Positions 191 to 35,511 of a stretch of DNA of 38,094 nt are shown in pieces. Source of the stretch: Pseudomonadota bacterium (GTDB taxonomy: Bacteria; Pseudomonadota; Alphaproteobacteria; CADEGL01); the NCBI GenBank assembly GCA_027619995.1, contig JAQCGR010000003.1, forward strand, positions 1 through 38,094, given 5' to 3'. The notes beneath the pieces are model-generated. The model was given only the letters and a program-made list of their open reading frames with translations. It was not told the origin of the DNA and ran no database searches. Within the stretch, counting starts at the first letter, position 1. Every line of letters begins with the position of its first letter. A program made the position numbers and the translations under genes.

Positions 191-223
191 GAGAAACGGG
201 CGGAGCCTCGCGGCCCCGCCCGT
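191..223 (-). terminator. Probable intrinsic terminator of the aminotransferase gene
   Basis: Minus strand reads ACGGGCGGGGCC-GCGA-GGCTCCGCCCGT-TTCTC: a 12-bp stem (one G-U pair), a GNRA loop and a short pyrimidine tail, 24 nt after the stop codon. Confidence 0.6.
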
Positions 224-247
224 CGTCTTTAACCAAAGTCGGGTTGG

Positions 248-1591
248 TTAGGCCGCTTCCTTGATCGCTTCCGTCAGGGTGTCGACGATCTGGTCGATTT
301 GGCCCTTGGAGATGATCAGCGGCGGGCTCATGGCCAGGATATCGGCCGTGTAGCGGACCAGGACGCCCTTGTCGTAGCACTTGTTGAAGATGTCGTAGCC
401 GCGCGTGCCCGGCGCATCCTTGCGCGGCTCGAACTGCACGGCGCCCATGATGCCGAAGTCGCGCACATCCACCACGGGGCCGAGATCGGCCATCGAATGC
501 ATGGCGTCCTGCCAATAGGACTCCAACTCGGCCGCGCGCTCGAACAATCCCTCGCTCTGATAGACGTCCAGGGTGGCGAGGCCGGCCGCCGCGGCCAGCG
601 GATGGGCCGAATAGGTGTAACCGTGGGTCAGCTCGACCGCATAGGGATTGTCGCCCTGCATGAAGGCGTCATGGATGAACTTGCGGCAGAACACGGCGCC
701 CATCGGCACCGTCGCGTTGCTCAAGCCCTTGGCCGTGGTCATCAGGTCGGGCACGACGCCGAAGCGGTCGCCCGCGAAGGGCCTGCCCAGACGGCCGAAG
801 CCGGTGATGACCTCGTCGAAGATCAGCAGCAAACCATGCTTGTCGCAAATCGCGCGCAGGCGTTCGAGATAGCCCTTGGGCGGCACCAGCACGCCGGCCG
901 AACCGGCCACCGGCTCGACGATCACCGCGGCGATGGTCGAGGCGTCGTGCAGGGCCACGATCTCCTCCAGCTCGTCGGCCAGATGGGCGCCCCATTCGGG
1001 TTGGCCGCGGCTGAACGCCATCTTGTCGATATTGTAGGTATGGGGCAGATGATCGACCCCGCCCAGCAACCCGCCATAGAGCTTGCGGTTGGGCGACATG
1101 CCGCCGACCGAGATGCCGCCGAAGCCGACCCCGTGATAGCCGCGCGCGCGGCCGATCAGGCGGGTGCGCTGCCCGTCGCCCTTCATCCGGTGATAGGCCA
1201 GCGCGATCTTGAGCGCGGTGTCGACCGATTCGGAGCCCGAATTGGTGAAGAAGACATGGTCGAGATCGCCGGGCGCGATGCGCGCCAGACGGGCGGCCAG
1301 CTCGAAGGGCGCGGGATGGCCCATCTGGAAGGACGGCGCGTATTCCATGCGCGCCACCTGTTCCTGCACCGCGCGCACGATCGGCTCGCGGCAATGGCCG
1401 GCATTGACGCACCAGAGGCCCGCCGTGCCGTCCAGCACCTTGCGACCGTCCTGGGTGGTGTAGTGCATGTCCTTGGCCTCGACCAGAAGCCGGGGCGCCG
1501 CCTTGAATTGGCGGTTTGCCGTGAACGGCATCCAAAAGGCCGACAGGTCGTTGGGCATACGGTCGTAAACGGAGTCAGATGCGCTCGCCAT
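248..1591 (-). CDS. Class III PLP aminotransferase, omega-amino acid/beta-alanine:pyruvate transaminase (BauA-like)
   Basis: FWMPFTANRQF N-terminus, FFTNSGSE, RGYHG, VIVEPVAGSAG, LLIFDEVITGFGR, PLP lysine in TTAKG, HGYTYSAHP; GAGGGAG RBS upstream. Confidence 0.93.
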   Translation of the reverse strand: MASASDSVYDRMPNDLSAFWMPFTANRQFKAAPRLLVEAKDMHYTTQDGRKVLDGTAGLWCVNAGHCREPIVRAVQEQVARMEYAPSFQMGHPAPFELAARLARIAPGDLDHVFFTNSGSESVDTALKIALAYHRMKGDGQRTRLIGRARGYHGVGFGGISVGGMSPNRKLYGGLLGGVDHLPHTYNIDKMAFSRGQPEWGAHLADELEEIVALHDASTIAAVIVEPVAGSAGVLVPPKGYLERLRAICDKHGLLLIFDEVITGFGRLGRPFAGDRFGVVPDLMTTAKGLSNATVPMGAVFCRKFIHDAFMQGDNPYAVELTHGYTYSAHPLAAAAGLATLDVYQSEGLFERAAELESYWQDAMHSMADLGPVVDVRDFGIMGAVQFEPRKDAPGTRGYDIFNKCYDKGVLVRYTADILAMSPPLIISKGQIDQIVDTLTEAIKEAA

Positions 1592-1768
1592 GGCAATTCT
1601 CCCTCGAATTTGGGCCGGAAACGCGGAACTTGAGCCAGTTTATCACCTGTCGGGGGAGGGGCAAATGCGCTCGCGCCCCAGCGGATAGGGGCGGCGGAGC
1701 GCGTGGGCGGGATAGTCTTGGTAAATAAACATGGTTAATTTTAACAGCATTTTGTCAGTTCAAATGCC

Positions 1769-1784
1769 TGGCATGATTTATGCT
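1769..1784 (+). promoter_or_regulatory. Sigma-54 (-24/-12) promoter candidate
   Basis: TGGCATGATTTATGCT has exact GG-N10-GC spacing and is close to TGGCACG-N4-TTGC(A/T); it lies in an AT-rich intergenic tract 80 nt upstream of ORF 1865. Confidence 0.6.
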
Positions 1785-1864
1785 TACTTCGACAGATAGA
1801 GAAATTCCTGTGGAAAGATAAAATTGTAGAAACCTTTTATTGAGTATGCGTAGGATAGATTGCC

Positions 1865-2236
1865 ATGACGAGCATATCCGCAATCCGGCTTCCCGGAACC
1901 CACGCCCCTCGGGCCGCGCATCCTGCCGCCCCCGTCGAGGCCGTCGCCCCCGCGGGATCCAACGATAGCTTCCCACCGCAGCGGGAGTCCGGTGCCGCAA
2001 GAACCGAACGGCGCAACCTGCCGGCCGTCATCCGGGCGCCGCGGACGGAGGCGGCTGCGCCGCGCCCGGCCGGCGTTTCGCTACCCTATCTGGCGCAGCA
2101 TATCGCCCAGGAAATCCTGGGCCCGTCGCGCATGGCCCTCGATCTGCGCTTTCACCACCATCCCGGCCTCGACGCCTATGCCGCCATGCAGATGGCGGAG
2201 CCGGAGCTGCCCGCCCAACGTCGCGCCTGGGCCTGA
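1865..2236 (+). CDS. Small hypothetical protein: Pro/Ala-rich N-terminus, C-terminal LPYLAQHIAQE...DAY segment
   Basis: 123-aa ORF with ATG, AGGA RBS and GC-rich codon usage, filling the gap between the AT-rich promoter region and the ureohydrolase. Confidence 0.65.
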   Translation: MTSISAIRLPGTHAPRAAHPAAPVEAVAPAGSNDSFPPQRESGAARTERRNLPAVIRAPRTEAAAPRPAGVSLPYLAQHIAQEILGPSRMALDLRFHHHPGLDAYAAMQMAEPELPAQRRAWA

Positions 2237-2307
2237 AGTCGATGCCCCGATAGCCGCGGCCTGATAGACTGGCCGTCCTATTGGAGGCTGGCGGCGAGGG
2301 CGCGGAC

Positions 2308-3294
2308 ATGACCGAAGACAACAAGAGGGGCAAGCCGCCCGCCACCGATCAGCGGGCCATGAACCAGCCGCGCTACACCGGCATTCCGACCTTCATGCGC
2401 GCGCCCTATTGCCCGAACCCGGCCGAGCTGGATATCGCCATCGTCGGCGTGCCCTATGACGGTGGCGTGACCAACCGGAGCGGCGCGCGCCACGGGCCAC
2501 GCGAAATCCGCAACAGCTCCAGCCTCATGCGCGCGATCCACCATGTCAGCCGGATCAATCCCTTCGACATCTGCCGGGTTGGCGATCTGGGCGATATCGA
2601 GCTGCCGCATCTGTTCGATATCGCCGCGACGGTGGACGACATCGCCGCCTTCTACGCCGATCTGCACGCAGCCGGCGCCGCGCCGTTGAGCGCAGGGGGC
2701 GATCACGCCATCACCTATCCGATCTTCAAGGGAATCGCCGCGCATCGGCCCGTCGGCATGGTCCATATCGACGCCCATACCGATACCTGGGACGAATTCC
2801 TGGGCTGCAAATTCATGCATGGCACGCCCTTCCGCCGGGCCGTGGAGGATGGCCTGCTCGACCCCAAACGCACCATCCAGATCGGTATCAGAGGCGCCCA
2901 GAATACCGAGGAGGGTTGGCGCTTCTCCCTCGAAAGCGGCATGCGTGTGGTCTGGATGGAGGAATTCACCGAGATGGGGGTCGAGGCGGTGATCGCCGAG
3001 GCCCGCCGGGTGGTCGGCGACGGCCCGACCTATGTGTCCTTCGATGTCGACGGGCTCGACCCGGTCTTCGCGCCCGGCACGGGCGCCCCCGAAGTCGGCG
3101 GATTGACGACGATCGAAGCCCAACGCCTGATCCGCGGATTGCGCGGCCTGGATATCGTGGGCGGCGATGTGGTCGAGGTCTCGCCGCCCTTCGATCCCAG
3201 CGGCAACACGGCCTTGGTCGGCGCCACGATGCTTTACGAAATCCTCTGCATCCTGGCCGAAGCGACTGCCAAGAGGCGCACCCGCGCGACCTAG
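2308..3294 (+). CDS. Ureohydrolase (agmatinase family), guanidinopropionase GpuA-like
   Basis: GGDHAI, DAHTD, HGTPFRR, SFDVDGLDP, APGTG, DVVEVSPPFD. The segment TNRSGARHGPREIRNSSSLMRAIHHVSRI closely resembles P. aeruginosa GpuA as I recall it. ATG 2308 preferred over TTG 2281. Confidence 0.9.
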   Translation: MTEDNKRGKPPATDQRAMNQPRYTGIPTFMRAPYCPNPAELDIAIVGVPYDGGVTNRSGARHGPREIRNSSSLMRAIHHVSRINPFDICRVGDLGDIELPHLFDIAATVDDIAAFYADLHAAGAAPLSAGGDHAITYPIFKGIAAHRPVGMVHIDAHTDTWDEFLGCKFMHGTPFRRAVEDGLLDPKRTIQIGIRGAQNTEEGWRFSLESGMRVVWMEEFTEMGVEAVIAEARRVVGDGPTYVSFDVDGLDPVFAPGTGAPEVGGLTTIEAQRLIRGLRGLDIVGGDVVEVSPPFDPSGNTALVGATMLYEILCILAEATAKRRTRAT

Positions 3295-3410
3295 TTAAGC
3301 GGCCGAGTGAAGCGACCTAGTGATGCCGGGGCCGAGTTGCTATCGTCCCGGGCCTTCCGAATTCGCGAACCGAAACGCGAATCGCCACCGAAAAAAACGG
3401 ACGATCCACC

Positions 3411-4925
3411 ATGGCCGACACCGTCAAATCCCTTCTTCGCGCGCCCGCCGATGCCCCGGCGATCCTGGCCCCGGACAGCCCGGCGCTGAGCCACGGGGCC
3501 CTGCGCGCCCATGTCGAGCGCACCGTCGCGCGGCTCAACGAGTTGGGGATCGGACGCAACGACCGGGTTGCCATCGTGCTGCCCAACGGCCCGGAGATGG
3601 CCAGCGCCTTTGTCGCCATCGCCGCCGGGGCAACCACCGCGCCGCTCAACCCCGCCTATCGGGACGAGGAATTCGAATTCTATCTCTCCGATCTGGGCGC
3701 CAAGGCCCTGGTGCTGGAGGCCGGCGCCGACTCCCCCGCCATCGCGGTGGCCGAACGCCTCGGCGTTCCGATCTTGCGCCTGGAAGCGCGGCGCGATGAA
3801 GGCGCGGGGCTGTTCGATCTTCTGGGCGATGCCGGCGGCGCACCGGAATCGGGCGGCATGGCGGAGCCGGACGATATCGCCCTGGTACTGCACACCTCGG
3901 GCACGACATCCCGGCCCAAGATCGTGCCCCTGGCCCAGACCAATATCTGCGCAACGGCGCGGCATATCGGTGAAACTCTCGCGCTGAAACCGGCCGACCG
4001 CTGCCTCAACATCATGCCGCTGTTCCATATTCACGGCCTGATGTCGGCCGTGCTCTCCAGCCTGGCGGCGGGCGCCAGCGTCTATTGCTCGCCGGGCTTC
4101 AACGCCCTCAAATTCTTCTCCTGGATGGAGGAGGCCGGACCGAGCTGGTACACGGCCGTGCCGACCATGCATCAGGCTATCCTCAGCCGGGCCGCGCGCA
4201 ACCAGGCGACCGTCGACAAGGCGAAGCTGCGGTTCATCCGCTCCTCCTCCTCCTCCCTCGCGCCCCAGGTCATGGCCGAGCTGGAGCAGGTCTTCGGCGC
4301 CCCGGTCATCGAATCCTACGGCATGACCGAAGCGGCGCATCAGATGACCTCGAATCCCCTGCCGCCGCGCGAGCGCAAGCCGGGTTCGGTCGGCGTCGCC
4401 GCCGGGCCGGAGGTTGCGATCATGGGGAAGGATGGCGCCCTGCTGCCCGCAGAGACCGAGGGCGAGGTCGTGATCCGCGGCCCCAATGTCACCGGGGGCT
4501 ATGAGAACAACCCCGAAGCCAATGCCGGCGCCTTCACCGACGGCTGGTTCCACACCGGCGACAACGGCGTGATGGACGACGCCGGCTATCTGCGCATCAC
4601 CGGGCGGATCAAGGAGATCATCAACCGCGGCGGCGAGAAAATCTCGCCCCGCGAGGTCGACGAGATCCTGATGGATCATCCCGCGGTCGCCCAGGCCGTC
4701 ACCTTCGCCATGCCCCATGACAAGCTGGGCGAAGAGGTCGCCTGCGCCATCGTCCTGCGCGAAGGCGCCACGGCCGAGGAGCGCGAGATCAGGGATTTCG
4801 CTGCCACCCGCCTCGCCGATTTCAAGGTGCCGCGCAAGGTTCTGTTCCTCGAGGAAATCCCCAAGGGGGCGACCGGCAAGCTGCAACGCATTGGCCTGGC
4901 CAAGCAATTGGGCCTGGCCCCGTGA
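3411..4925 (+). CDS. Acyl-CoA synthetase, oxalate-CoA ligase (AAE3/Pcs60/Oxs)-like
   Basis: LVLHTSGTTSRPK, PLFHIHGL, WYTAVPTMHQ, LRFIRSSS, YGMTEAAHQMTSNPLP, FHTGD, INRGGEKISP, PKGATGKLQR. Confidence 0.88.
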   Translation: MADTVKSLLRAPADAPAILAPDSPALSHGALRAHVERTVARLNELGIGRNDRVAIVLPNGPEMASAFVAIAAGATTAPLNPAYRDEEFEFYLSDLGAKALVLEAGADSPAIAVAERLGVPILRLEARRDEGAGLFDLLGDAGGAPESGGMAEPDDIALVLHTSGTTSRPKIVPLAQTNICATARHIGETLALKPADRCLNIMPLFHIHGLMSAVLSSLAAGASVYCSPGFNALKFFSWMEEAGPSWYTAVPTMHQAILSRAARNQATVDKAKLRFIRSSSSSLAPQVMAELEQVFGAPVIESYGMTEAAHQMTSNPLPPRERKPGSVGVAAGPEVAIMGKDGALLPAETEGEVVIRGPNVTGGYENNPEANAGAFTDGWFHTGDNGVMDDAGYLRITGRIKEIINRGGEKISPREVDEILMDHPAVAQAVTFAMPHDKLGEEVACAIVLREGATAEEREIRDFAATRLADFKVPRKVLFLEEIPKGATGKLQRIGLAKQLGLAP

Positions 4926-5945: not shown

Positions 5946-7328
5946 ATGGAATTCGACGCCGTCCTCCTTTCTCGCATCCAGTTCGGCTTCACCCTCGCCT
6001 TCCATATCCTGTTTCCGACCCTGACCATCGGGCTCGGCCTTCTCCTGGTCTTCGTCGAGGCCCAATGGCTGCGCACGCGGGACGAAGCCTGGCGGACCCT
6101 CTGGCGCTTCTGGATCAGGATCTTCGCCCTGGCCTTCGGCATGGGCGTGGTCAGCGGCGTCGTGCTGTCCTTCGAATTCGGCATGAACTTCTCGCGCTTT
6201 TCCGCCGCGACGGGCGAAGTGCTGGGCCCCCTGCTCGGCTACGAGGTGATGACCGCTTTCTTCCTCGAGGCCGGCTTCCTGGGAATCATGCTGTTCGGCT
6301 GGAAGCTGGTCGGCGACCGCCTCCATTTCATGGCGACCTGCATGGTCGCCGTCGGCACCTCGATCTCGGCCTTCTGGATTCTCGCGGCCAATTCCTGGAT
6401 GCACACCCCCGCCGGCTTCGAACTGGTCGACGGCGTGTTCAAGCCGGTCGATTGGGTGGCGGTGATCTTCAACCCCTCCTTCCCCTACCGCTTTCTGCAT
6501 ATGACCCTGGCCTCCTGGATGACGGCCTCCTTCGTCATGGCCGGGGTCTGCGCCCTGCTGATCCTGCGCGGCCGGACGGACGAAAGCCTGCGCGAGGGCT
6601 TCCGCCTCGCCCTGCTGACGGCGGCCATCGTCTCGCCCGCACAGATCTTCGTCGGCGATATGAGCGGTCTGGCCGTGCGCGAGTACCAGCCGATCAAACT
6701 GGCCGCGATCGAAGCCGTCTGGGAGACCGAGGGTGCCGTCCCCTTTCATATCTTCACCTGGCCGGACATGGAGGCCGAGGAGAACCGCTTCTCGATCTCG
6801 ATCCCCTACGGCGCCAGCCTGATCACGACCCATGACCCGGAGGGCGTGATCCAGGGCCTCAAATCCGTCCCCCCCGAGGACCGGCCCTATGTGCCGCTGG
6901 TCTTCTTTTCCTTCCGCATCATGGTCGGGATCGGCTTTGCCCTGCTCGGCCTCGCGATGTGGGGGGTATGGCTGCGACGCAAGGGCCGGCTGTTCGAGGC
7001 GAAACTATTCCAGCGGGCCTGTGTCGCGGCGATGCCGCTGGGCTTCGTCGCCACCATCATGGGTTGGATCACGGCGGAGGCCGGGCGCCAGCCCTGGGTC
7101 GTCCAGGGCCTGATGCGCACGAAGGACGCGGCCAGCGATCTCGCGCCGGAATCGGTCGCCACCTCTCTCCTGCTGTTCTTCGTCGTCTACAATCTCTTGC
7201 TGGGCACCTTCCTGTATTTCCTTTGGCATCTGATCCGGCGCGGACCTGACACCGAGCCCGAGCCGAACCGGGCGCCGGAGGACGAGCAGCCGCGCCTGGC
7301 GAGCTGGCACGGCGCGGACGGGAGCTGA
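5946..7328 (+). CDS. cydA: Cytochrome bd quinol oxidase subunit I, short Q-loop (CioA type)
   Basis: LSRIQF, AFHILFP, FFLEAGFLG, ILAANSWMHTP, RFLHM, QPIKLAAIE, FRIMVG, GWITAEAGRQPW; strong RBS. Confidence 0.96.
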   Translation: MEFDAVLLSRIQFGFTLAFHILFPTLTIGLGLLLVFVEAQWLRTRDEAWRTLWRFWIRIFALAFGMGVVSGVVLSFEFGMNFSRFSAATGEVLGPLLGYEVMTAFFLEAGFLGIMLFGWKLVGDRLHFMATCMVAVGTSISAFWILAANSWMHTPAGFELVDGVFKPVDWVAVIFNPSFPYRFLHMTLASWMTASFVMAGVCALLILRGRTDESLREGFRLALLTAAIVSPAQIFVGDMSGLAVREYQPIKLAAIEAVWETEGAVPFHIFTWPDMEAEENRFSISIPYGASLITTHDPEGVIQGLKSVPPEDRPYVPLVFFSFRIMVGIGFALLGLAMWGVWLRRKGRLFEAKLFQRACVAAMPLGFVATIMGWITAEAGRQPWVVQGLMRTKDAASDLAPESVATSLLLFFVVYNLLLGTFLYFLWHLIRRGPDTEPEPNRAPEDEQPRLASWHGADGS

Positions 7329-29206: not shown

Positions 29207-30031
29207 CTAGGTGCCGATCTTGAGCGGCGAGACCAGACCCTTGAGGGTGGCGATGGCGTTCAATGGAGTCAGTTTGCCCGTTGCCGGATTCTCAACACTG
29301 GGCACCCCGGCGATGGTCATTTCGAAACGGGTCTCGGCGCTTTCCACCCGGATCGTATGGGTGTTGCGGTCGAGGCCCGGATCCGCCCAGATCTCGTAGC
29401 GCGTCTCGTCCGGGCCGATTCCCGCCAGCGCCAGGGCGACGGAGACATTGACGTTGGCCGGAAATTTCTGCGCCGCGTCGCGCACAGAACCCTCATAGAG
29501 CTTCACCGGTCCAGTCAGAGCGTCGAGATCGATCCCCTGTTCCTTGACGAAAGGCGCCGAGCGCAGGCCGGCGGGCGGTTTGCGCGTGACCATGACGACC
29601 TCGTGCACCGTGCCCTCGGCGGCCGCGCGCACGGCGTCGAGTCCCAAGATCGCGCCGGTCGGCACGATGATCCGCCCCCCGGTCTCACGCGCCCGGTCGA
29701 CCAGTTCCATATTGACCAGAAGGGCCGTGACCGTGAGTGGAATGAGGATCTTTCCAGCCTCCACCACCGGCCGAGCGAGGTCCAGGAATCGCGCCGGCGG
29801 CAGACCCTCGACCAGCACATCCGACAACTCGACCAACTCGTCCAGCCCGACGACGGGCGGGGGCGTCCGGAAATCGGCGGTCCGGGCCTCGGCACGCGCC
29901 TTGTCGGAGGCGGAGACCCCGGCCAGAACCAGGCCCTCGATCCCCGCATCCAATGCCCTTGCGACCGGCATCCCGACCGCGCCCAACCCGGCCACGCCGA
30001 CCCGCAGCGGCGACTTGTCCATCCTGCCCAT
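29207..30031 (-). CDS. nadX: L-aspartate dehydrogenase family protein (alternative start 30022)
   Basis: GLGAVG, GAILGLDAV.AA, TRKPP, FPANVNV, WADP, N.H.I, PS.ENP.T. Confidence 0.85.
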   Translation of the reverse strand: MGRMDKSPLRVGVAGLGAVGMPVARALDAGIEGLVLAGVSASDKARAEARTADFRTPPPVVGLDELVELSDVLVEGLPPARFLDLARPVVEAGKILIPLTVTALLVNMELVDRARETGGRIIVPTGAILGLDAVRAAAEGTVHEVVMVTRKPPAGLRSAPFVKEQGIDLDALTGPVKLYEGSVRDAAQKFPANVNVSVALALAGIGPDETRYEIWADPGLDRNTHTIRVESAETRFEMTIAGVPSVENPATGKLTPLNAIATLKGLVSPLKIGT

Positions 30032-30044
30032 TCCGCGTCCCTTT

Positions 30045-31070
30045 CTAAGCCGCCGCACGTTCCGATCCACCACCCGCAACCGCGGCCAGGGCCCGCTCCA
30101 CGACCTCGGGGCCGGCCCCGGTCGCATGAACCTCCGTGCTGAGGATACGCCGCCATTGCCGTGCGCCGGGTACGCCCTGAAACAGCGAAATCATATGCCG
30201 GGTGACGGTATGCAGGCGCAGGCCGGCGCCGAGTTGTCGCTCGATATAGGGCAGCATGGCAGCCACCACCTCGGCCCGGCTCGGCACCTCATCACCGGCA
30301 CCGAAGAAACGGCGGTCCGCGCCCGCCAGGAGATAGGGGTCGCGGTAGGCCGCGCGGCCGATCATCACCCCGTCGACCGGGCCGAGATGGCCTGCCGCCG
30401 CATCCAGATCGTCGATGCCGCCGTTGATCGAAACGTCGAGATCCGGCCGCTCGGCCTTGAGGCGATGCACCAGTTCGTGGCGCAGGGGCGGCACGCTGCG
30501 GTTCTGCTCCGGACTCAACCCTTCCAGCCAAGCTTTGCGGGCATGGACGATGAAACGCGTACAACCTGCGGCCGAGACGATCTCCACAAAATTCGACAGG
30601 GCGGGCCATTCCTCCTGCTCGTCGATGGCGATGCGCGATTTCACGCTGACCGGCAGGGGCGTGGCCGCGCGCATGGCCGAAACGCAGGCGGCCACCGTCT
30701 CCGGCTCCGCCATCAGGCAGGCGCCGAAGCGGCCCGATTGCACCCGGTCGCTGGGGCAGCCGACATTGAGGTTGATCTCGTCATAACCGAAATCCGCGGC
30801 AATCCGCGCGCATTCGGCCAAGGAGGCCGGGTCGGCGCCGCCGAGTTGCAGGGCGACGGGATGTTCGTCCGGGTCGAAGGCGAGATGGCGTACGCGGTCG
30901 CCGTGAATCACGGCATTGGCCGTGACCATCTCTGAATAGAGCAGGGTATGGCGCGTGATACGCCGGAACAGATAGCGGCAATGCCGATCGGTCCAGGCCA
31001 TCATCGGGGCGACGGCCAGGGGCATGGGATAGTTCAGGGGATACCGCAGTGATTCGCTCGGCATTGTCAT
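30045..31070 (-). CDS. dusA: tRNA-dihydrouridine(20/20a) synthase (start uncertain: 31070 or 31064)
   Basis: VAPMM.WTDRHCRY, EHPVALQLGG, NLNVGCPSDRVQSGRFGACLM, VHARKAWL.GLSP..NR..PPL, INGGI, GVMIGRAAY. Confidence 0.95.
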   Translation of the reverse strand: MTMPSESLRYPLNYPMPLAVAPMMAWTDRHCRYLFRRITRHTLLYSEMVTANAVIHGDRVRHLAFDPDEHPVALQLGGADPASLAECARIAADFGYDEINLNVGCPSDRVQSGRFGACLMAEPETVAACVSAMRAATPLPVSVKSRIAIDEQEEWPALSNFVEIVSAAGCTRFIVHARKAWLEGLSPEQNRSVPPLRHELVHRLKAERPDLDVSINGGIDDLDAAAGHLGPVDGVMIGRAAYRDPYLLAGADRRFFGAGDEVPSRAEVVAAMLPYIERQLGAGLRLHTVTRHMISLFQGVPGARQWRRILSTEVHATGAGPEVVERALAAVAGGGSERAAA

Positions 31071-31171
31071 GGCGCCATAGGAACGCCGCGCACCCGCAAA
31101 AGGCAAGGTCGGCTCATGGCTCTCGGCATCCGGAGGCGGTTTGGCGGACCATTTAGGGGAACGGGTCGCTA

Positions 31172-32056
31172 TCAAGCGTAGTAGATTGCCCCGGGAACGT
31201 AGGCCTCTGGAAGGTCGAGGCCCGGGGGCATATCCCTGTTCAGCTGAAAGCGCTCGGGAAGAAAGTGCGTGTTCGGCCCGTACGTCAAAGATGCGTTCGG
31301 CGGCGAGATCGGCGTTCGAATTTCGATTCGTCCCAGCCTTGTCTCAACGACCCGCGTCGCGTTTTCGTCACTCAATGTCGGACCCAGTTCCGGAAGAAAA
31401 GCAGGCAATTGCATGCCTTCGCGCGATCGAAGTTCGGCGGCACATCGCTCGCTTTGCGCGCGGACACAGAATCGAATGTTCGCCGAACCCAGCCCCAGGT
31501 CATAAAGCGGGCACTGCCTGTCGGCGCGTCGGATCGCTGCAGTATCCGGCCCACGCAAGGTCAGGCTGTCGACGGCCCGCAGAGCCCGCTTCGCCCTTGG
31601 CACGGCGAGGACGATTCTTTCCGTCCCGCTGAGACCTGATGCCCCAGTATCCACCCTCAAAGCTCGAACGCCCTGATCGCCAGTAAGACGCAAGGCGGCG
31701 CGCGGCGTCACGGCTTCGATCGTGGCATCCTTGCGGGTCACGACAACAACTTCGTCGCGGTCACGGATGAATTCGGCGACGGCACCGTATACGCCAAACA
31801 CCCATGTTCCCTCACCGGATCGCAGCGTCCGCTCGACGTATTCCAGGATGTCGATTTCGAGCCACGGCAAACGGCTCACGACGATTCCGAGTTCGGCGAA
31901 CCGGGCGAGGAGACCATCCCAAACGCGCTGGCGCTGGCTTTCGGCCATCGTGCGCCAGTTGGATAACTCCTCTGCCGTCCTGCCGCAGCCCAGGCAGTAA
32001 TCACTCGATCCGCCGAATCGGCAGATGCCGACGCAAGGACTCGCGATAGCTGTCAT
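31172..32056 (-). CDS. Uncharacterised protein: N-terminal DUF1289 Cys motif fused to a ~230-aa domain of unknown function
   Basis: SPCVGIC...CLGCGRT.EE...W at the N-terminus; C-domain motifs WVFGVYGAVAEF, RFCVR, GRIEI, GPNTHFLP; 23 nt downstream of cbtA on the same strand. Confidence 0.8.
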   Translation of the reverse strand: MTAIASPCVGICRFGGSSDYCLGCGRTAEELSNWRTMAESQRQRVWDGLLARFAELGIVVSRLPWLEIDILEYVERTLRSGEGTWVFGVYGAVAEFIRDRDEVVVVTRKDATIEAVTPRAALRLTGDQGVRALRVDTGASGLSGTERIVLAVPRAKRALRAVDSLTLRGPDTAAIRRADRQCPLYDLGLGSANIRFCVRAQSERCAAELRSREGMQLPAFLPELGPTLSDENATRVVETRLGRIEIRTPISPPNASLTYGPNTHFLPERFQLNRDMPPGLDLPEAYVPGAIYYA

Positions 32057-32079
32057 GGAATTGCGTGAACCGCCTGCAT

Positions 32080-32826
32080 TCAGCCAAGCCGGCGATAGAA
32101 TGCCGCCGAAAATCCGCCGATCAGCACCCAGGAAATGGCGCTGACGACAATGGATGCTGCGACAAAGTGCCCGGCGAGTTCCGGAGGCACGGCGCCGCCG
32201 ATTGCTTCCGGATTCGGCGCGCCCACCACGTGCGGGATAACCATGGCCAGGACGCCGGCGGCCTTCCAGTAAAGCTTGTCAGTAAAGACCAGCAGGCCCA
32301 GACCGAGCGCCGCGCCGACGGCCACAAAAACCCACCATTGCTGGCGCGCCCCGAGTTCGGCCGCCATGGTTCCGGGAAGTTCCGGCGGCAAGCCAAGACC
32401 TGGCGCAAGCGTGAAGACGACGAAACCGGCTGCGCCCCACAGGACGCCCGTTCCCACTGAAACAGGCTTTCCGCTAAGGACCATTCCGGCGACAACGAGA
32501 AGGGAGAATCCCGTTGCGACGAGGATGTTCGCCAATGTCGTGTATAGCGTCCGCTCCAATCCGTCCGCCGGAGCCCAGCCTTCCTCTTCCCCCATGACCG
32601 GCGCGCCATCCTCGACACGATGCACGAGTGTCGCGGCCGAGTTGTCGAAAACGGCCGGCTGGAAGCCGTTTGTTCCCGGCAACGTAGCGCTGTGCTGGTG
32701 TCCGCCGCCTTCATATTCCTCGGCATGCAGGATAATCGGCGTGGTGGTGACGCTCTGAATCCCGGAAATCAGGACACCCACAAGCAAGCCGGCGGCAATA
32801 GCCGCCAGCAAAACCCGTCGAATCAT
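32080..32826 (-). CDS. cbtA: Putative cobalt transporter subunit CbtA
   Basis: AG...G, PIILHAEEYE, His-containing loop, EGWAPADGLER, LWG..GF..F.LAP.LGLPPELPG, RQ.WW, PHVVGAP. Confidence 0.92.
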   Translation of the reverse strand: MIRRVLLAAIAAGLLVGVLISGIQSVTTTPIILHAEEYEGGGHQHSATLPGTNGFQPAVFDNSAATLVHRVEDGAPVMGEEEGWAPADGLERTLYTTLANILVATGFSLLVVAGMVLSGKPVSVGTGVLWGAAGFVVFTLAPGLGLPPELPGTMAAELGARQQWWVFVAVGAALGLGLLVFTDKLYWKAAGVLAMVIPHVVGAPNPEAIGGAVPPELAGHFVAASIVVSAISWVLIGGFSAAFYRRLG

Positions 32827-32839
32827 GTTTCGTGATCCG

Positions 32840-33037
32840 TCAGTGGCAGGGAAAAGCGAAGGCATGCCGTGCATCGTGCGCGGCGTTGTGCAGCACGTTC
32901 GGGCTGGCGAAGCCTGTACCTGCGATCAGAAACACGCCAAGCAGAATGGCGGCAACGGCAGCGTAGATTGCATTGACTCTTTCGCCAGTGACAACGGGAT
33001 GCGACTGCGCCGATGACGTCTTGGAGATTGGTTCCAT
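32840..33037 (-). CDS. cbtB: Putative cobalt transporter subunit CbtB
   Basis: Single TM followed by C-terminal HNAAHDARHAFAFPCH; AAGGGGAG RBS. Confidence 0.93.
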   Translation of the reverse strand: MEPISKTSSAQSHPVVTGERVNAIYAAVAAILLGVFLIAGTGFASPNVLHNAAHDARHAFAFPCH

Positions 33038-33120
33038 CTTGATCTCCCCTTTTGGCGCACCCTGCGTGCGCTATGGGCAAAAGTTAGCCGATGAGCGAAA
33101 AACGAGGCTCATCGACGATC

Positions 33121-33290
33121 TGACGAGGCAGGTCTTCTGGCTTCCGGATCCTCGCCCGATGCGTTCCGCCTTCCCAGCGCGACAGCGCCAGTGGCGTGAT
33201 ACGAACGCAGACTCCCCGGTCACAGCTGCGGGGCAGCGCCGGATTCGCACCGGCTTCCCTCTTGCCCGATTCACACCAGGCACCCCATCA
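33121..33290 (-). ncRNA. Cobalamin (B12) riboswitch
   Basis: Minus strand has GGTGC...AAGAGGGAAGCCGGTGCGAATCCGGCGCTGCCCCGCAGCTGTGA...GCCACTG...CTGGGAAGGC...GAAGCCAGAAGACCTGCC (B12 box); P1 TGATGGGG pairs with CCTCGTCA; upstream of cbtBA. Confidence 0.95.
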
Positions 33291-33298
33291 CAATTTTT

Positions 33299-33328
33299 AG
33301 CCTAGCTACCTTTAACAAGACGGGTCAA
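33299..33328 (-). promoter_or_regulatory. Sigma-70-type promoter of the riboswitch-cbtBA unit
   Basis: TTGACC-N18-TAGGCT, placing the start site just before riboswitch P1. Confidence 0.6.
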
Positions 33329-33501
33329 CCTTACAAGACCCCTCGGGTCATTCATAAGCCCGCCAGATACTCCCAGAGCACCCTGTTCGACGGCGATCGT
33401 CTCGCGGGATAGAGCGGCATCATTTCGGGACGCGGCAATGAACTACGCGCCCTCGGACGTTGAACTGGTGTTTGATCCGGGCCCAGGCGAAAGGCGACCT
33501 C

Positions 33502-33942
33502 ATGGCCCATACCTATCTGTCTTCCTGCCATTGCGGAAATCTATCCGCGCGCTACGAGTGCACCAGCGCCACGGGAGCCTTGCCCCTGCGCGCCTGCGGC
33601 TGCGGGTTCTGCCGCAAACACAATGCGCGCACGACCTCGGATCCCAAGGGGCGCGCCGAGATCGTGGTGCGCGATCCCGCCGCGCTGACGCGCTATCGCT
33701 TCGGCCAGCGCACGGCCGATTTCCTGGTCTGCGGCAATTGCGGCGTCTATCTCGGCGCCCTGTTCACGGATGAGGACGGCGCCGCCTACGCCACCCTGAA
33801 TGCCAATACCTTCGCCAATGCCCAGGCCCTGCCCGACACGGTCGAGACGGTTCAGTACGAGCAGGAATCGGCGGCTGAGAAGAATGCCCGGCGCCGGATC
33901 CGCTGGACCCCTGCCAGCCTGCGCATCGCCGGCGTGGATTAG
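33502..33942 (+). CDS. GFA/CENP-V family Zn-binding protein
   Basis: SCHCG, CGCGFCRKH, YRFG..TADF..C..CG. Confidence 0.88.
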   Translation: MAHTYLSSCHCGNLSARYECTSATGALPLRACGCGFCRKHNARTTSDPKGRAEIVVRDPAALTRYRFGQRTADFLVCGNCGVYLGALFTDEDGAAYATLNANTFANAQALPDTVETVQYEQESAAEKNARRRIRWTPASLRIAGVD

Positions 33943-33975
33943 GTTTCCGAATGCGATCCTCGCCGGCGATCGCCG

Positions 33976-35511
33976 TCACATTTCCTCATCCGCCAGCCGC
34001 TTCCGCAGCACGGTCTTGAGAGTCTTGCCGTAGTTGTTTTTGGGCAGGGCATCCAGGATGCGATAGCCCTTGGGCCGTTTGAAGCGCGCGATCCGCTCCA
34101 GGCAAAGGCGATCCAGTTCCTCCGGGCTGGGTTCCGCCCCCGGCTTGGGCACGATGAAGGCGAAGACAGTCTCGCCCCAATCGGGATCGGGCCGGCCGAT
34201 CACCGAGACCTCCGCGACCCCGTCATGGGCCAGCAGCGCCTCCTCCACCTCGCGCGGATAGATGTTGGAACCGCCGCTGATGATCAGATCCTTGGACCGG
34301 TCCATCAGGGTCAGGAAGCCATCGCCATCCAGCCGCCCGATATCGCCGGTGTGCAGCCAGCCACCGCGCAGGGTTTGGGCCGTCGATTCGGGATCGCGCC
34401 AATAGCCGGCCATGACCGTCTCGCCCCGCACCAAGATCTCCCCCGCCTCGCCCACCGCCACCGGGCGGTCCTCCGGATCGGTCAGGCGCAGATCGACCAG
34501 AGTCTGGGCCGTCCCGACGGAGGACAGGCGCGCCTCGTGGCGCGGATCGTCGCGGTCGGCATGATCGGCCTTGGTCAAGGCGGTGATCGTCATGGGCGAT
34601 TCGCCTTGGCCGTAGATCTGCGCGAGCTTGTTGCCGAACGCGGCCAGCGCGCGCCGACAATCGCCGAGATACATGGGCGCGCCGCCATAGACGATGGTCT
34701 TCAGATTGGCGGTATCCGCCGAGGCGGCGAGAGGGCTTTCGGCGAGGCGATGGACCATGGTTGGCGCTGCGAAGATCGTGGCCTTCCGGTGGGCCGGCAG
34801 CAGGGCGAAAATCTCCGCCGGGTCGAAGCCGCCGCTCTCCGGCATCACCTGGGTCGCGGCCTTTGCCATATGGGGCAGGACGTAAAGGCCGGAGCCGTGG
34901 GACAGGGGTGCGGCATGAAGGATCGAATCGCCCGGCGCGATGGTATCCACATCCATGAAATAGCAGGCCGTCATGGCCATCAGGTTGCGATGGGTCAGCA
35001 TCGCGCCCTTGGGCCGGCCGGTCGTGCCGCTGGTGTAGAACAGCCAGGCCAGATCGTCGAGCGCGGCCTCGGCCGGATCGCCGCCCTCCGCCGCGCAGAA
35101 GCTTTCCCAATCCTTCGAGCCCGCGATCAGGATCGTCGGCGCCATCGCCGCATCGCGCGCGGCATCGGCCGCCGTCTCGGCGAGATCGCCGGTGACGAGG
35201 CAGGCCCCGGCTTCGCTATGGCCGAGGATGTAGCCGATTTCCCTGGCGTGCAGCTTGGCGTTGATCGGCACCGCGGCCAGCCCCGCCCACCAGCAGGCGA
35301 ACAGCGCCTCCAGATAGGCCGGATGGTTTCGCATCAGGATCGCCACCCGGTCGCCTCGGGCCAGACCCAATCGACCGCGCAGCCCAGCGGCCAGTCCCGC
35401 GGTTCGCCGCGCCAACGCGGCATGGTCCAGGACCGGCACGGCCCCCAGGGCGACGGCCGTGCGCGCCGGATGCAGGCGCGCCGCGCGGGCGAGCAATTGG
35501 GCGAGATTCAT
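33976..35511 (-). CDS. AMP-binding acyl-CoA synthetase
   Basis: WLFYTSGTTGRPKG, QIYGQGE, GWLHTGD, DRSKDLIISGG.NIYPREVE, LPKNNYGK; MNLAQLL start. Confidence 0.92.
   Translation of the reverse strand: MNLAQLLARAARLHPARTAVALGAVPVLDHAALARRTAGLAAGLRGRLGLARGDRVAILMRNHPAYLEALFACWWAGLAAVPINAKLHAREIGYILGHSEAGACLVTGDLAETAADAARDAAMAPTILIAGSKDWESFCAAEGGDPAEAALDDLAWLFYTSGTTGRPKGAMLTHRNLMAMTACYFMDVDTIAPGDSILHAAPLSHGSGLYVLPHMAKAATQVMPESGGFDPAEIFALLPAHRKATIFAAPTMVHRLAESPLAASADTANLKTIVYGGAPMYLGDCRRALAAFGNKLAQIYGQGESPMTITALTKADHADRDDPRHEARLSSVGTAQTLVDLRLTDPEDRPVAVGEAGEILVRGETVMAGYWRDPESTAQTLRGGWLHTGDIGRLDGDGFLTLMDRSKDLIISGGSNIYPREVEEALLAHDGVAEVSVIGRPDPDWGETVFAFIVPKPGAEPSPEELDRLCLERIARFKRPKGYRILDALPKNNYGKTLKTVLRKRLADEEM

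Follow-up and report, generated by a model that had tools for sequence, protein, structure and literature searches.

How bacteria handle cobalt and corrinoids in the cell, once these have been imported and until the coenzyme is complete, is poorly known. In humans, dedicated chaperones for vitamin B12 (cobalamin) exist, and the MMACHC/CblC proteins, which belong to a different fold family from the one discussed here, are cytoplasmic B12-processing chaperones; to our knowledge, no bacterial B12 chaperone that acts after BtuCD has been described. The DUF6925 family may supply this missing cytoplasmic B12-handling protein. Considered below is one of its members, encoded in a 38,094-nucleotide stretch of alphaproteobacterial DNA (contig JAQCGR010000003.1; hereafter the window) as the third gene of a unit that is headed by a cobalamin riboswitch and begins with cbtB and cbtA, the genes of the predicted cobalt importer CbtAB. 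The third protein joins a DUF6925 core to an N-terminal DUF1289 module and is referred to as the fused form, in distinction from unfused DUF6925 proteins.

Cobalt import under an adenosylcobalamin riboswitch is described in a review for CbtJKL of Sinorhizobium meliloti, a BtuFCD-like ATP-binding cassette (ABC) system. For the locus in the window, the tentative proposal, regarded as possible but somewhat short of probable, is that the third protein is a B12-repressed cytoplasmic corrinoid-handling protein, analogous to haem chaperones.

The fused family belongs to the alphaproteobacterial B12 riboswitch regulon

Queries of genome and metagenome contigs with the single protein gave no match, and relatives were found with alignment-based queries. 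Scanning one genome per species in this way confirmed 220 related stretches, of which the best 80 (L006–L085) were searched with a covariance model for cobalamin riboswitches trained on 15 Rfam-verified examples. For 49 of these 80 loci the model placed a same-strand riboswitch upstream, at distances of 210–4656 nucleotides (nt); the fraction was 39/50 where the upstream flank reached 4.7 kb or more and 10/30 where it was shorter. A further six loci have a riboswitch nearby on the opposite strand or downstream, and in L008 and L081 the element immediately precedes the fused gene. Rfam confirmed the riboswitch in all 11 loci chosen for conserved gene order and found none in 11 loci that were negative with the covariance model. 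The background is 0–3 cobalamin riboswitches per related genome (34 in 21 genomes). The family regularly takes part in the B12 riboswitch regulon of Alphaproteobacteria and is among its most consistent members. The original prediction had linked the third gene to B12 and had proposed counting homologues behind B12 riboswitches or in cob/cbt clusters; the riboswitch-led unit, these counts and the cobalt- and corrinoid-uptake genes found as operon mates bear out that association. The minus strand downstream of one fused-type locus, L025, carries two tandem matches to the small RNA SorX (RF02784, 67 bits each), at 6945–7020 and 7120–7193.

The usual neighbour of the fused gene outside the window's lineage is a Peripla_BP_2 gene encoding a BtuF-like protein of ~265 amino acids (aa), which in its adjacent form lacks a signal peptide. 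It ends no more than 60 nt from the start of the fused gene in 41/80 loci, and in 24 of the 29 pairs examined its stop codon overlaps the ATG of the fused gene by 4 nt, indicating translational coupling. The partner is highly conserved (80% mean column identity over 29 aligned loci; for example, L021:5201–5998), and the closest solved structures by profile are B12-binding (5ysc, 6e-18; Escherichia coli BtuF, 9e-13) and haem-binding proteins. It is in itself unusual for a "periplasmic binding protein" to be cytoplasmic. A complex prediction for the partner with the fused protein scored 0.00, which counts neither for nor against binding. The first gene behind the riboswitch is often one for a ~100-aa protein (29 of the 49 riboswitch-led strings; for example, L082:4904–5206 and L160:6666–6962) that precedes the BtuF-like gene and the DUF1289–DUF6925 gene; this first-gene family has no Pfam or NCBIfam match.

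Cultured strains show similar associations, with B12 or cobalt genes adjoining in 7/7 regions inspected and an upstream riboswitch in the single fused-form region (1/1) and in 4/6 unfused ones. The fused gene of Cereibacter azotoformans, on plasmid pORIO2, follows a riboswitch and a 98-aa gene and lies amid genes for cobyric acid synthase, cobyrinate diamide synthase and cbiM. The corresponding stretch (L160; pORIO2 100560–115423) contains six cobalamin riboswitch matches in 15 kb, amid cobalamin-biosynthesis, ABC-transporter and cbiM genes. A tblastn search of plasmids returned 49 records; among the rows listed, only the C. azotoformans protein matched over most of its length, and the other 39 match the DUF6925 part alone, roughly residues 66–293.

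Unfused DUF6925, which carries a C-terminal helical extension in place of the cysteine module, ends btuB–btuFCD corrinoid-uptake operons and is found beside CbiZ in two genera. In Phaeobacter the order is riboswitch, TonB receptor, substrate-binding protein, permease, ATPase, CbiZ, DUF6925 and exbBD. On plasmid pCMU01 of Methylorubrum extorquens CM4 it is riboswitch, btuB, btuF, btuC, btuD and DUF6925; the available part of the paper on this plasmid names the four genes btuBFCD behind the riboswitch and does not discuss the fifth. Directly after that fifth gene, at the end of the operon, lies a 174-aa AAA_33 kinase-like gene (L162:8891–9415). Shinella has the same riboswitch–btuBFCD–DUF6925 order together with CbiZ and a histidine phosphatase, and the operon of Aminobacter is similar. 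In Novacetimonas, DUF6925 and cobyric acid synthase are divergent from a riboswitch-led TonB/ABC operon; in the available main text of a transcriptome paper on N. hansenii, cbtA and cbtB are mildly induced and the DUF6925 gene is not mentioned. Azospirillum carries genes for a substrate-binding protein, a permease and an ATPase followed by DUF6925.

The gene content behind the riboswitches bears directly on the main rival explanation, a cobalt-ion chaperone or buffer that would hold Co(II) through the four cysteines and/or the histidines of the GPHTH motif directly after import and deliver it to CobW/CobNST, with no tetrapyrrole bound. Gene calling at the loci followed a crude rule based on GC content at third codon positions, which overlooked some genes and called antisense shadows in place of others, so that the following string counts are approximate: the 49 riboswitch-led strings include seven with Znu-like ABC systems, seven with FecCD-type ABC systems, two with Nik-like ABC systems plus DUF1636, one with a TonB receptor and one with CbtAB. 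A NicO gene stands immediately upstream of the fused gene in L008, and a CobW-like GTPase does so in three soil-metagenome relatives (L111, L112 and L114). At least four different metal-type importers are represented among the operon mates (CbtAB in the window, Znu-like, Nik-like with DUF1636, and NicO), and the seven FecCD-type strings could represent CbtJKL-like cobalt importers. Conservation of the cysteine and histidine residues agrees with such a role, as does the occurrence of CobN above cut-off in 27/30 sampled fused-form genomes compared to 23/61 in a class-wide sample. Nevertheless, a cobalt chaperone is considered rather unlikely. The unfused form keeps the core without the cysteine module and sits in TonB-receptor, BtuFCD and CbiZ operons for corrinoids, not ions, and two of its carriers in the class-wide sample (G040 and G060) gave no CobN match. 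Moreover, the fold matches described below are tetrapyrrole binders only, and the constant partner of the fused form most resembles B12- and haem-binding proteins.

The third protein and its unit in the window

The third protein scores above the Pfam cut-off of 27 for its DUF1289 module and, with an E value of 7.6e-44, above the gathering cut-off of 27 bits for its DUF6925 core, which was found at the same place in a whole-genome scan (Table 1). The DUF6925 profile is matched over positions 4–223 of 300 and thus not over its full length, and the C-terminal helical extension typical of unfused DUF6925 is absent; the protein belongs to a shorter, DUF1289-fused DUF6925 subfamily. The four-cysteine module and the motifs GVYGAVAEF (predicted as G..GA.AEF), RFCVR and GPNTH are present as the original prediction had described them. 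Its soluble domain is likewise real, but it is not nameless, being already registered in Pfam as PF21973 (DUF6925), which is named though uncharacterized. The literature searched makes no mention of DUF6925, and no functional study of DUF1289 is apparent from the titles and abstract openings of that literature. Assignment as a periplasmic or membrane subunit was rejected, as the third protein shows no signal peptide or transmembrane segment, although no dedicated predictor was run.

Table 1. Features of the riboswitch-led unit, its third protein and the adjoining dusA gene, with positions in the window.
Feature	Position	Strand	Evidence or remark
TTGACC hexamer, possible -35 element	33323..33328	-	Candidate promoter only; read from sequence
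Cobalamin riboswitch aptamer (RF00174)	33110..33302	-	Rfam 116.1 bits, E 1.2e-28
Terminator-like hairpin and T-run, 3' end of aptamer	33098..33127	-	Stem 33127..33108, 6 pairs; tail CCTCGTTTTT
cbtB, small subunit of predicted cobalt importer, 65 aa	32840..33037	-	PF09489, TIGR02459
cbtA, large membrane subunit of predicted cobalt importer, 248 aa	32080..32826	-	PF09490, TIGR02458
Third gene, DUF1289 + DUF6925 fusion, 294 aa	31172..32056	-	Open reading frame (ORF), Pfam
DUF1289 module, residues 6-52, four Cys (C8, C12, C21, C24)	31901..32041	-	PF06945, 60.5 bits
DUF6925 core, residues 72-290, predicted beta-sheet domain, likely ChuX/HemS-like fold	31187..31843	-	PF21973, 150.7 bits
GPNTH motif, residues 260-264	31265..31279	-	Family consensus GPHTH
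dusA, tRNA dihydrouridine synthase, ~100 nt downstream of third gene	30045..31070	-	NF008774, 500.2 bits; start inferred from beginning of family match

When 5.8 billion clustered proteins were searched, 574 of the 8,000 candidates scored matched at E ≤ 0.001. All 120 matches listed share the two-domain make-up, and those that are named come from Rhodobacterales, Kiloniellales and other Alphaproteobacteria. The family is large, with at least 574 fused and at least 1,403 unfused clusters at 90% identity, and the DUF1289–DUF6925 fusion is common among Alphaproteobacteria.

An alignment of 73 members shows C8, C12, W85, G88, G91, D171, D186, R199, R235, R243, T263 and H264 among the invariant positions, with C21, C24 and H262 conserved at 90% or more. 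Residues invariant in both the fused and the unfused subfamily are W85, G88, G91, E95, F96, T117, G169, D171, A174, L184, D186, G188, R199, G214, R235, V236, G242, R243, E245, I250, P261, T263, H264, L266, P267 and P283, and the motif GPHTHxLP is common to both cores. T263 and H264 are invariant in the family, and H262 is replaced by asparagine only in the closest clade of the window protein, namely in that protein itself and its 89% identical relative; relatives at 70–72% identity retain the histidine. In this 89% relative, P0002, encoded on a 2.6-kb JGI contig, six residues are absent, two of them from among the four cysteines of DUF1289. The copy from a sister species in L006 retains all four.

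Fusion of a four-cysteine module to a putative tetrapyrrole-binding domain could also point to a redox enzyme, that is, an Fe-S-dependent corrin reductase or dealkylase in which a DUF1289 cluster would feed electrons to a corrinoid on DUF6925, either reducing Co(III)/Co(II) to Co(I) before adenosylation or decyanating imported B12. Such an enzyme would be in keeping with the occurrence of the fused form in CobN-positive producers and with B12 repression, which fits a biosynthetic or salvage step; we know of no dedicated cobyrinic acid diamide reductase gene for many aerobic producers. It is judged improbable, as the unfused subfamily works without the module, the close variant P0002 lacks half of the cysteines and a Pfam scan of the third protein revealed no flavin or NAD(P)H domain. 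Titles and abstract openings in the literature searched hold no evidence of Fe-S binding by DUF1289.

In the window, a riboswitch with a terminator-type platform heads the unit formed by cbtB, cbtA and the third gene. The aptamer is the sole Rfam match across the whole window, spans the full RF00174 model (positions 1–189 of 189; gathering score 31.5) and was recovered at 119.9 bits by the covariance model built in this analysis. Its 3' end runs into the hairpin and T-run, which suggests transcription termination as the expression platform; the hairpin likely serves this function and would turn transcription off once B12 is bound. For CbtB the bit scores are 63.4 with PF09489 and 70.5 with TIGR02459 (curated NCBIfam cut-off 64.4), and for CbtA they are 147.5 with PF09490 and 228.9 with TIGR02458 (curated cut-off 182.9). 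A Shine-Dalgarno-like GGGGAG precedes the cbtB ATG. Rfam, Pfam/NCBIfam and the coordinates confirm the composition of the unit as it had been predicted, in which 13 nt separate cbtB from cbtA and 23 nt separate cbtA from the third gene. The promoter predicted for the unit fared less well: the TTGACC hexamer does stand at the start coordinate that the prediction gave (33328), but a sigma-70 consensus scan of positions 30000–34000 returned no promoter-like site (0.5 expected from shuffled sequences), and the best -10 candidate matches at only three of six bases.

A weak hint that the third gene is co-transcribed with cbtA comes from the short gap between them, in which a scan detected no terminator-like site, and from one 151-nt metatranscriptome contig that spans the junction of the cbtA stop and the third-gene start (31984–32134; depth 2, six differences). 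Contigs from four seawater metatranscriptome runs, 90–99% alike to the window, join the riboswitch to cbtB and cbtB to cbtA; the third gene is covered only at 31984–32056, and the missing coverage of its remainder carries no information on expression. DNA can be present in RNA libraries, a contig that reaches across two genes is no proof of one shared transcript, and the small metatranscriptome shares (0.06–0.10) are no basis for habitat or expression claims. Downstream, dusA is probably not part of the riboswitch unit; the terminator scan found no terminator-like site between it and the third gene, and read-through is possible. Divergent to the operon, a cysteine-rich 160-aa ORF at 33460–33942 on the plus strand has no Pfam or NCBIfam match at E ≤ 0.1.

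Linkage of the third gene to cbtBA is a local feature of a single genus. Adjoining cbtA and cbtB were found only in the window and in L005, L006 and L109, whose copies of the gene are identical and come from one sister species, and in 0/79 other genome loci. Three family relatives (G005, G006 and G009) have cbtBA without the fused gene. In these relatives (L165, L166 and L167, respectively) the genes behind cbtB–cbtA are a PNPOx-like/DUF2470 gene, which is annotated in L165 and can be seen in L167, and pckA; no cobalamin riboswitch was found in the 3.5 kb examined. The third protein had been put forward as a new component and dedicated partner of CbtAB, which this distribution contradicts; of the proposed cytoplasmic partner role, the B12 tie through riboswitch linkage stands and the dedicated CbtAB partnership falls.

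Confinement of the cbtBA linkage to two sister species is what might be expected of a passenger gene, one that belongs to haem or another pathway, stands behind cbtA by accident and has no B12 or cobalt role. The fold relatives of the protein bind haem, H262 is replaced, and the ratio of nonsynonymous to synonymous substitution rates (dN/dS) against the sister species, at 0.34, exceeds those of the other three genes compared (cbtA, 0.25; cbtB, 0.33; dusA, 0.12). The same ratio, however, indicates purifying selection on a gene that is intact, and the family-wide riboswitch linkage in 49/80 loci and the B12 or cobalt neighbours in every cultured-strain region render this explanation very improbable.

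The window genome is 92.6% complete, comprises 418 contigs and holds a single copy of the fused gene. It has two cobalamin riboswitches, the second of which precedes a cobP-like gene and cobW. The presence of both CobN (1303 bits) and CobW (522.8 bits, behind that second riboswitch) indicates that this organism synthesizes B12 through the aerobic pathway. No gene closely homologous to the BtuF-like partner was found in this 92.6% complete genome; the best match within it, a 327-aa frame with 31% identity and 53 bits, was rejected as the usual partner.

Predicted fold and the proposed corrinoid handling

An AlphaFold model of the window protein was obtained with a predicted local distance difference test (pLDDT) score of 91.6 and a predicted template modelling score of 0.89; an ESM Atlas look-up with residues 58–294 gave no usable match. 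Exhaustive structural alignment of the model against 48,161 chains placed ChuX/HutX/ChuS-type or ChuX-like chains in the top five positions, with Z scores of 7.7 for 3na2, 6.8 for ChuS (162 residues aligned), 5.8 for HutX, 5.8 for 3fm2 and 5.1 for 2ph0. In a second look, HemS, PhuS, ChuS, ChuX, HutX and 3na2 made up the first 11 rows (Z 7.7–5.4), with the next row at 3.8, and two-repeat proteins aligned with the model over 158–176 residues. An independent AlphaFold model of the unfused subfamily (pLDDT 90.8) retrieved the same five chains at ranks 1–4 and 9, with Z scores of 7.0–4.2. A ChuX/HemS-like fold of DUF6925, as indicated by these models, is likely but unproven. The original prediction had left the choice between a cobalt chaperone, a redox protein and a corrinoid-salvage factor; the modelled fold and the genomic context lean toward corrinoid handling.

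Under the corrinoid-handling proposal, the DUF6925 core would adopt a ChuX/HemS-like fold and bind tetrapyrroles in the cytoplasm. The face of its beta-sheet would hold a corrinoid, which could be an imported one or a cobalt-corrinoid intermediate of de novo synthesis, with the invariant histidine of GPHTH and conserved arginine, aspartate and glutamate residues as contacts. This corrinoid would then be passed on to an adenosyltransferase, CbiZ or amidases, as HemS and PhuS do with haem after ABC import, and the N-terminal DUF1289 module may add a metal or Fe-S site that is structural or redox-active. When adenosylcobalamin is plentiful, the riboswitch would terminate transcription and turn off cobalt import and the corrinoid handler together. 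In the genus of the window organism, the gene may have lost its usual cytoplasmic BtuF-like partner and been placed behind cbtBA.

Several observations weigh against this proposal. With regard to the fold, all Z scores are below 8, a range that can reflect a common arrangement, and for the unfused model the ChuX-like rows stand barely above helical noise (Z 4.0–4.5). Foldseek against the PDB returned no match at E ≤ 0.001, hhalign of the DUF6925 alignment against eight HemS proteins (PF05171) gave a probability of 0.3, a PDB profile search with the family alignment yielded a single unrelated chain at E 0.15, and a Pfam scan of the window protein detected no HemS match. With regard to the riboswitch association, 11 of the 50 loci with full flank have no upstream riboswitch on the same strand, and none was found for Azospirillum in the stretch examined; the loci are mostly metagenome-assembled genomes from few, marine studies and from related lineages, so that their counts are not independent. 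In the window protein itself, asparagine takes the place of the nearly invariant H262, and its usual partner is absent. Finally, many operon mates of the fused form are metal-ion importers or the CobW-like GTPase, which favours cobalt over corrinoid. FecCD-type systems behind B12 riboswitches can import cobalt, as the review states for CbtJKL, and FecCD-type mates therefore need not mean corrinoid transport.

A bolder version, which must count as a long shot, would make DUF6925 proteins the long-missing bacterial cytoplasmic corrinoid chaperones and the fused form, together with the BtuF-like partner, an Fe-S-driven corrin reductase or hand-off station between CobNST/CobW and adenosylation. 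If true, it would fill the reductase gap of the aerobic B12 pathway. More generally, if the family handles corrinoids, B12 pathway maps would gain a step, with a bearing on engineered B12 production and, given that most carriers found are marine Alphaproteobacteria, on marine B12 cycling. The presence of the family in the cultivable strains of Cereibacter, Phaeobacter, Methylorubrum, Shinella and Azospirillum makes the proposal directly testable.

Comparison with known systems

CbtAB is encoded in the same riboswitch-led unit as the third protein, which in contrast to the importer is soluble and is not a conserved companion of it. CbtJKL provides a second parallel, in that FecCD-type ABC systems precede the fused gene in seven riboswitch-led strings, but CbtJKL is a transporter. 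CobW (COG0523), the cobalt metallochaperone for CobNST, is likewise a cytoplasmic cobalt-supply factor under B12 riboswitch control; the third protein lacks a GTPase domain and its fold is unrelated. The N-terminal 47 residues resemble E. coli YdhL-type DUF1289 proteins (PF06945; COG3313, "predicted Fe-S protein") and include all four cysteines. YdhL-type proteins are small and stand alone, whereas in the window the module is fused to DUF6925.

The closest resemblance is to the haem-handling proteins HemS/PhuS/ChuS/ShuS (PF05171) and ChuX/HutX, the only families to top three structural searches and thus alike to DUF6925 in predicted fold class. Like HemS/PhuS-type haem chaperones or degraders, DUF6925 proteins are cytoplasmic, and the unfused form occupies the slot of a HemS-type gene at the end of a TonB-receptor, substrate-binding protein, permease and ATPase uptake operon; a conserved histidine could act as an axial ligand, as in HemS-type proteins. 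DUF6925 differs from HemS and ChuX in having no detectable sequence similarity to them, in domain length (~235 aa, compared to ~165 aa for ChuX and ~340 aa for HemS) and, in the window protein, in the additional four-cysteine N-terminal module. It also differs from the iron-regulated HemS types in being controlled by a cobalamin riboswitch, and the expected ligand is therefore a corrinoid rather than haem. The role proposed for DUF6925, that of receiving B12 in the cytoplasm and readying it for cofactor synthesis, is the same as that of MMACHC/CblC.

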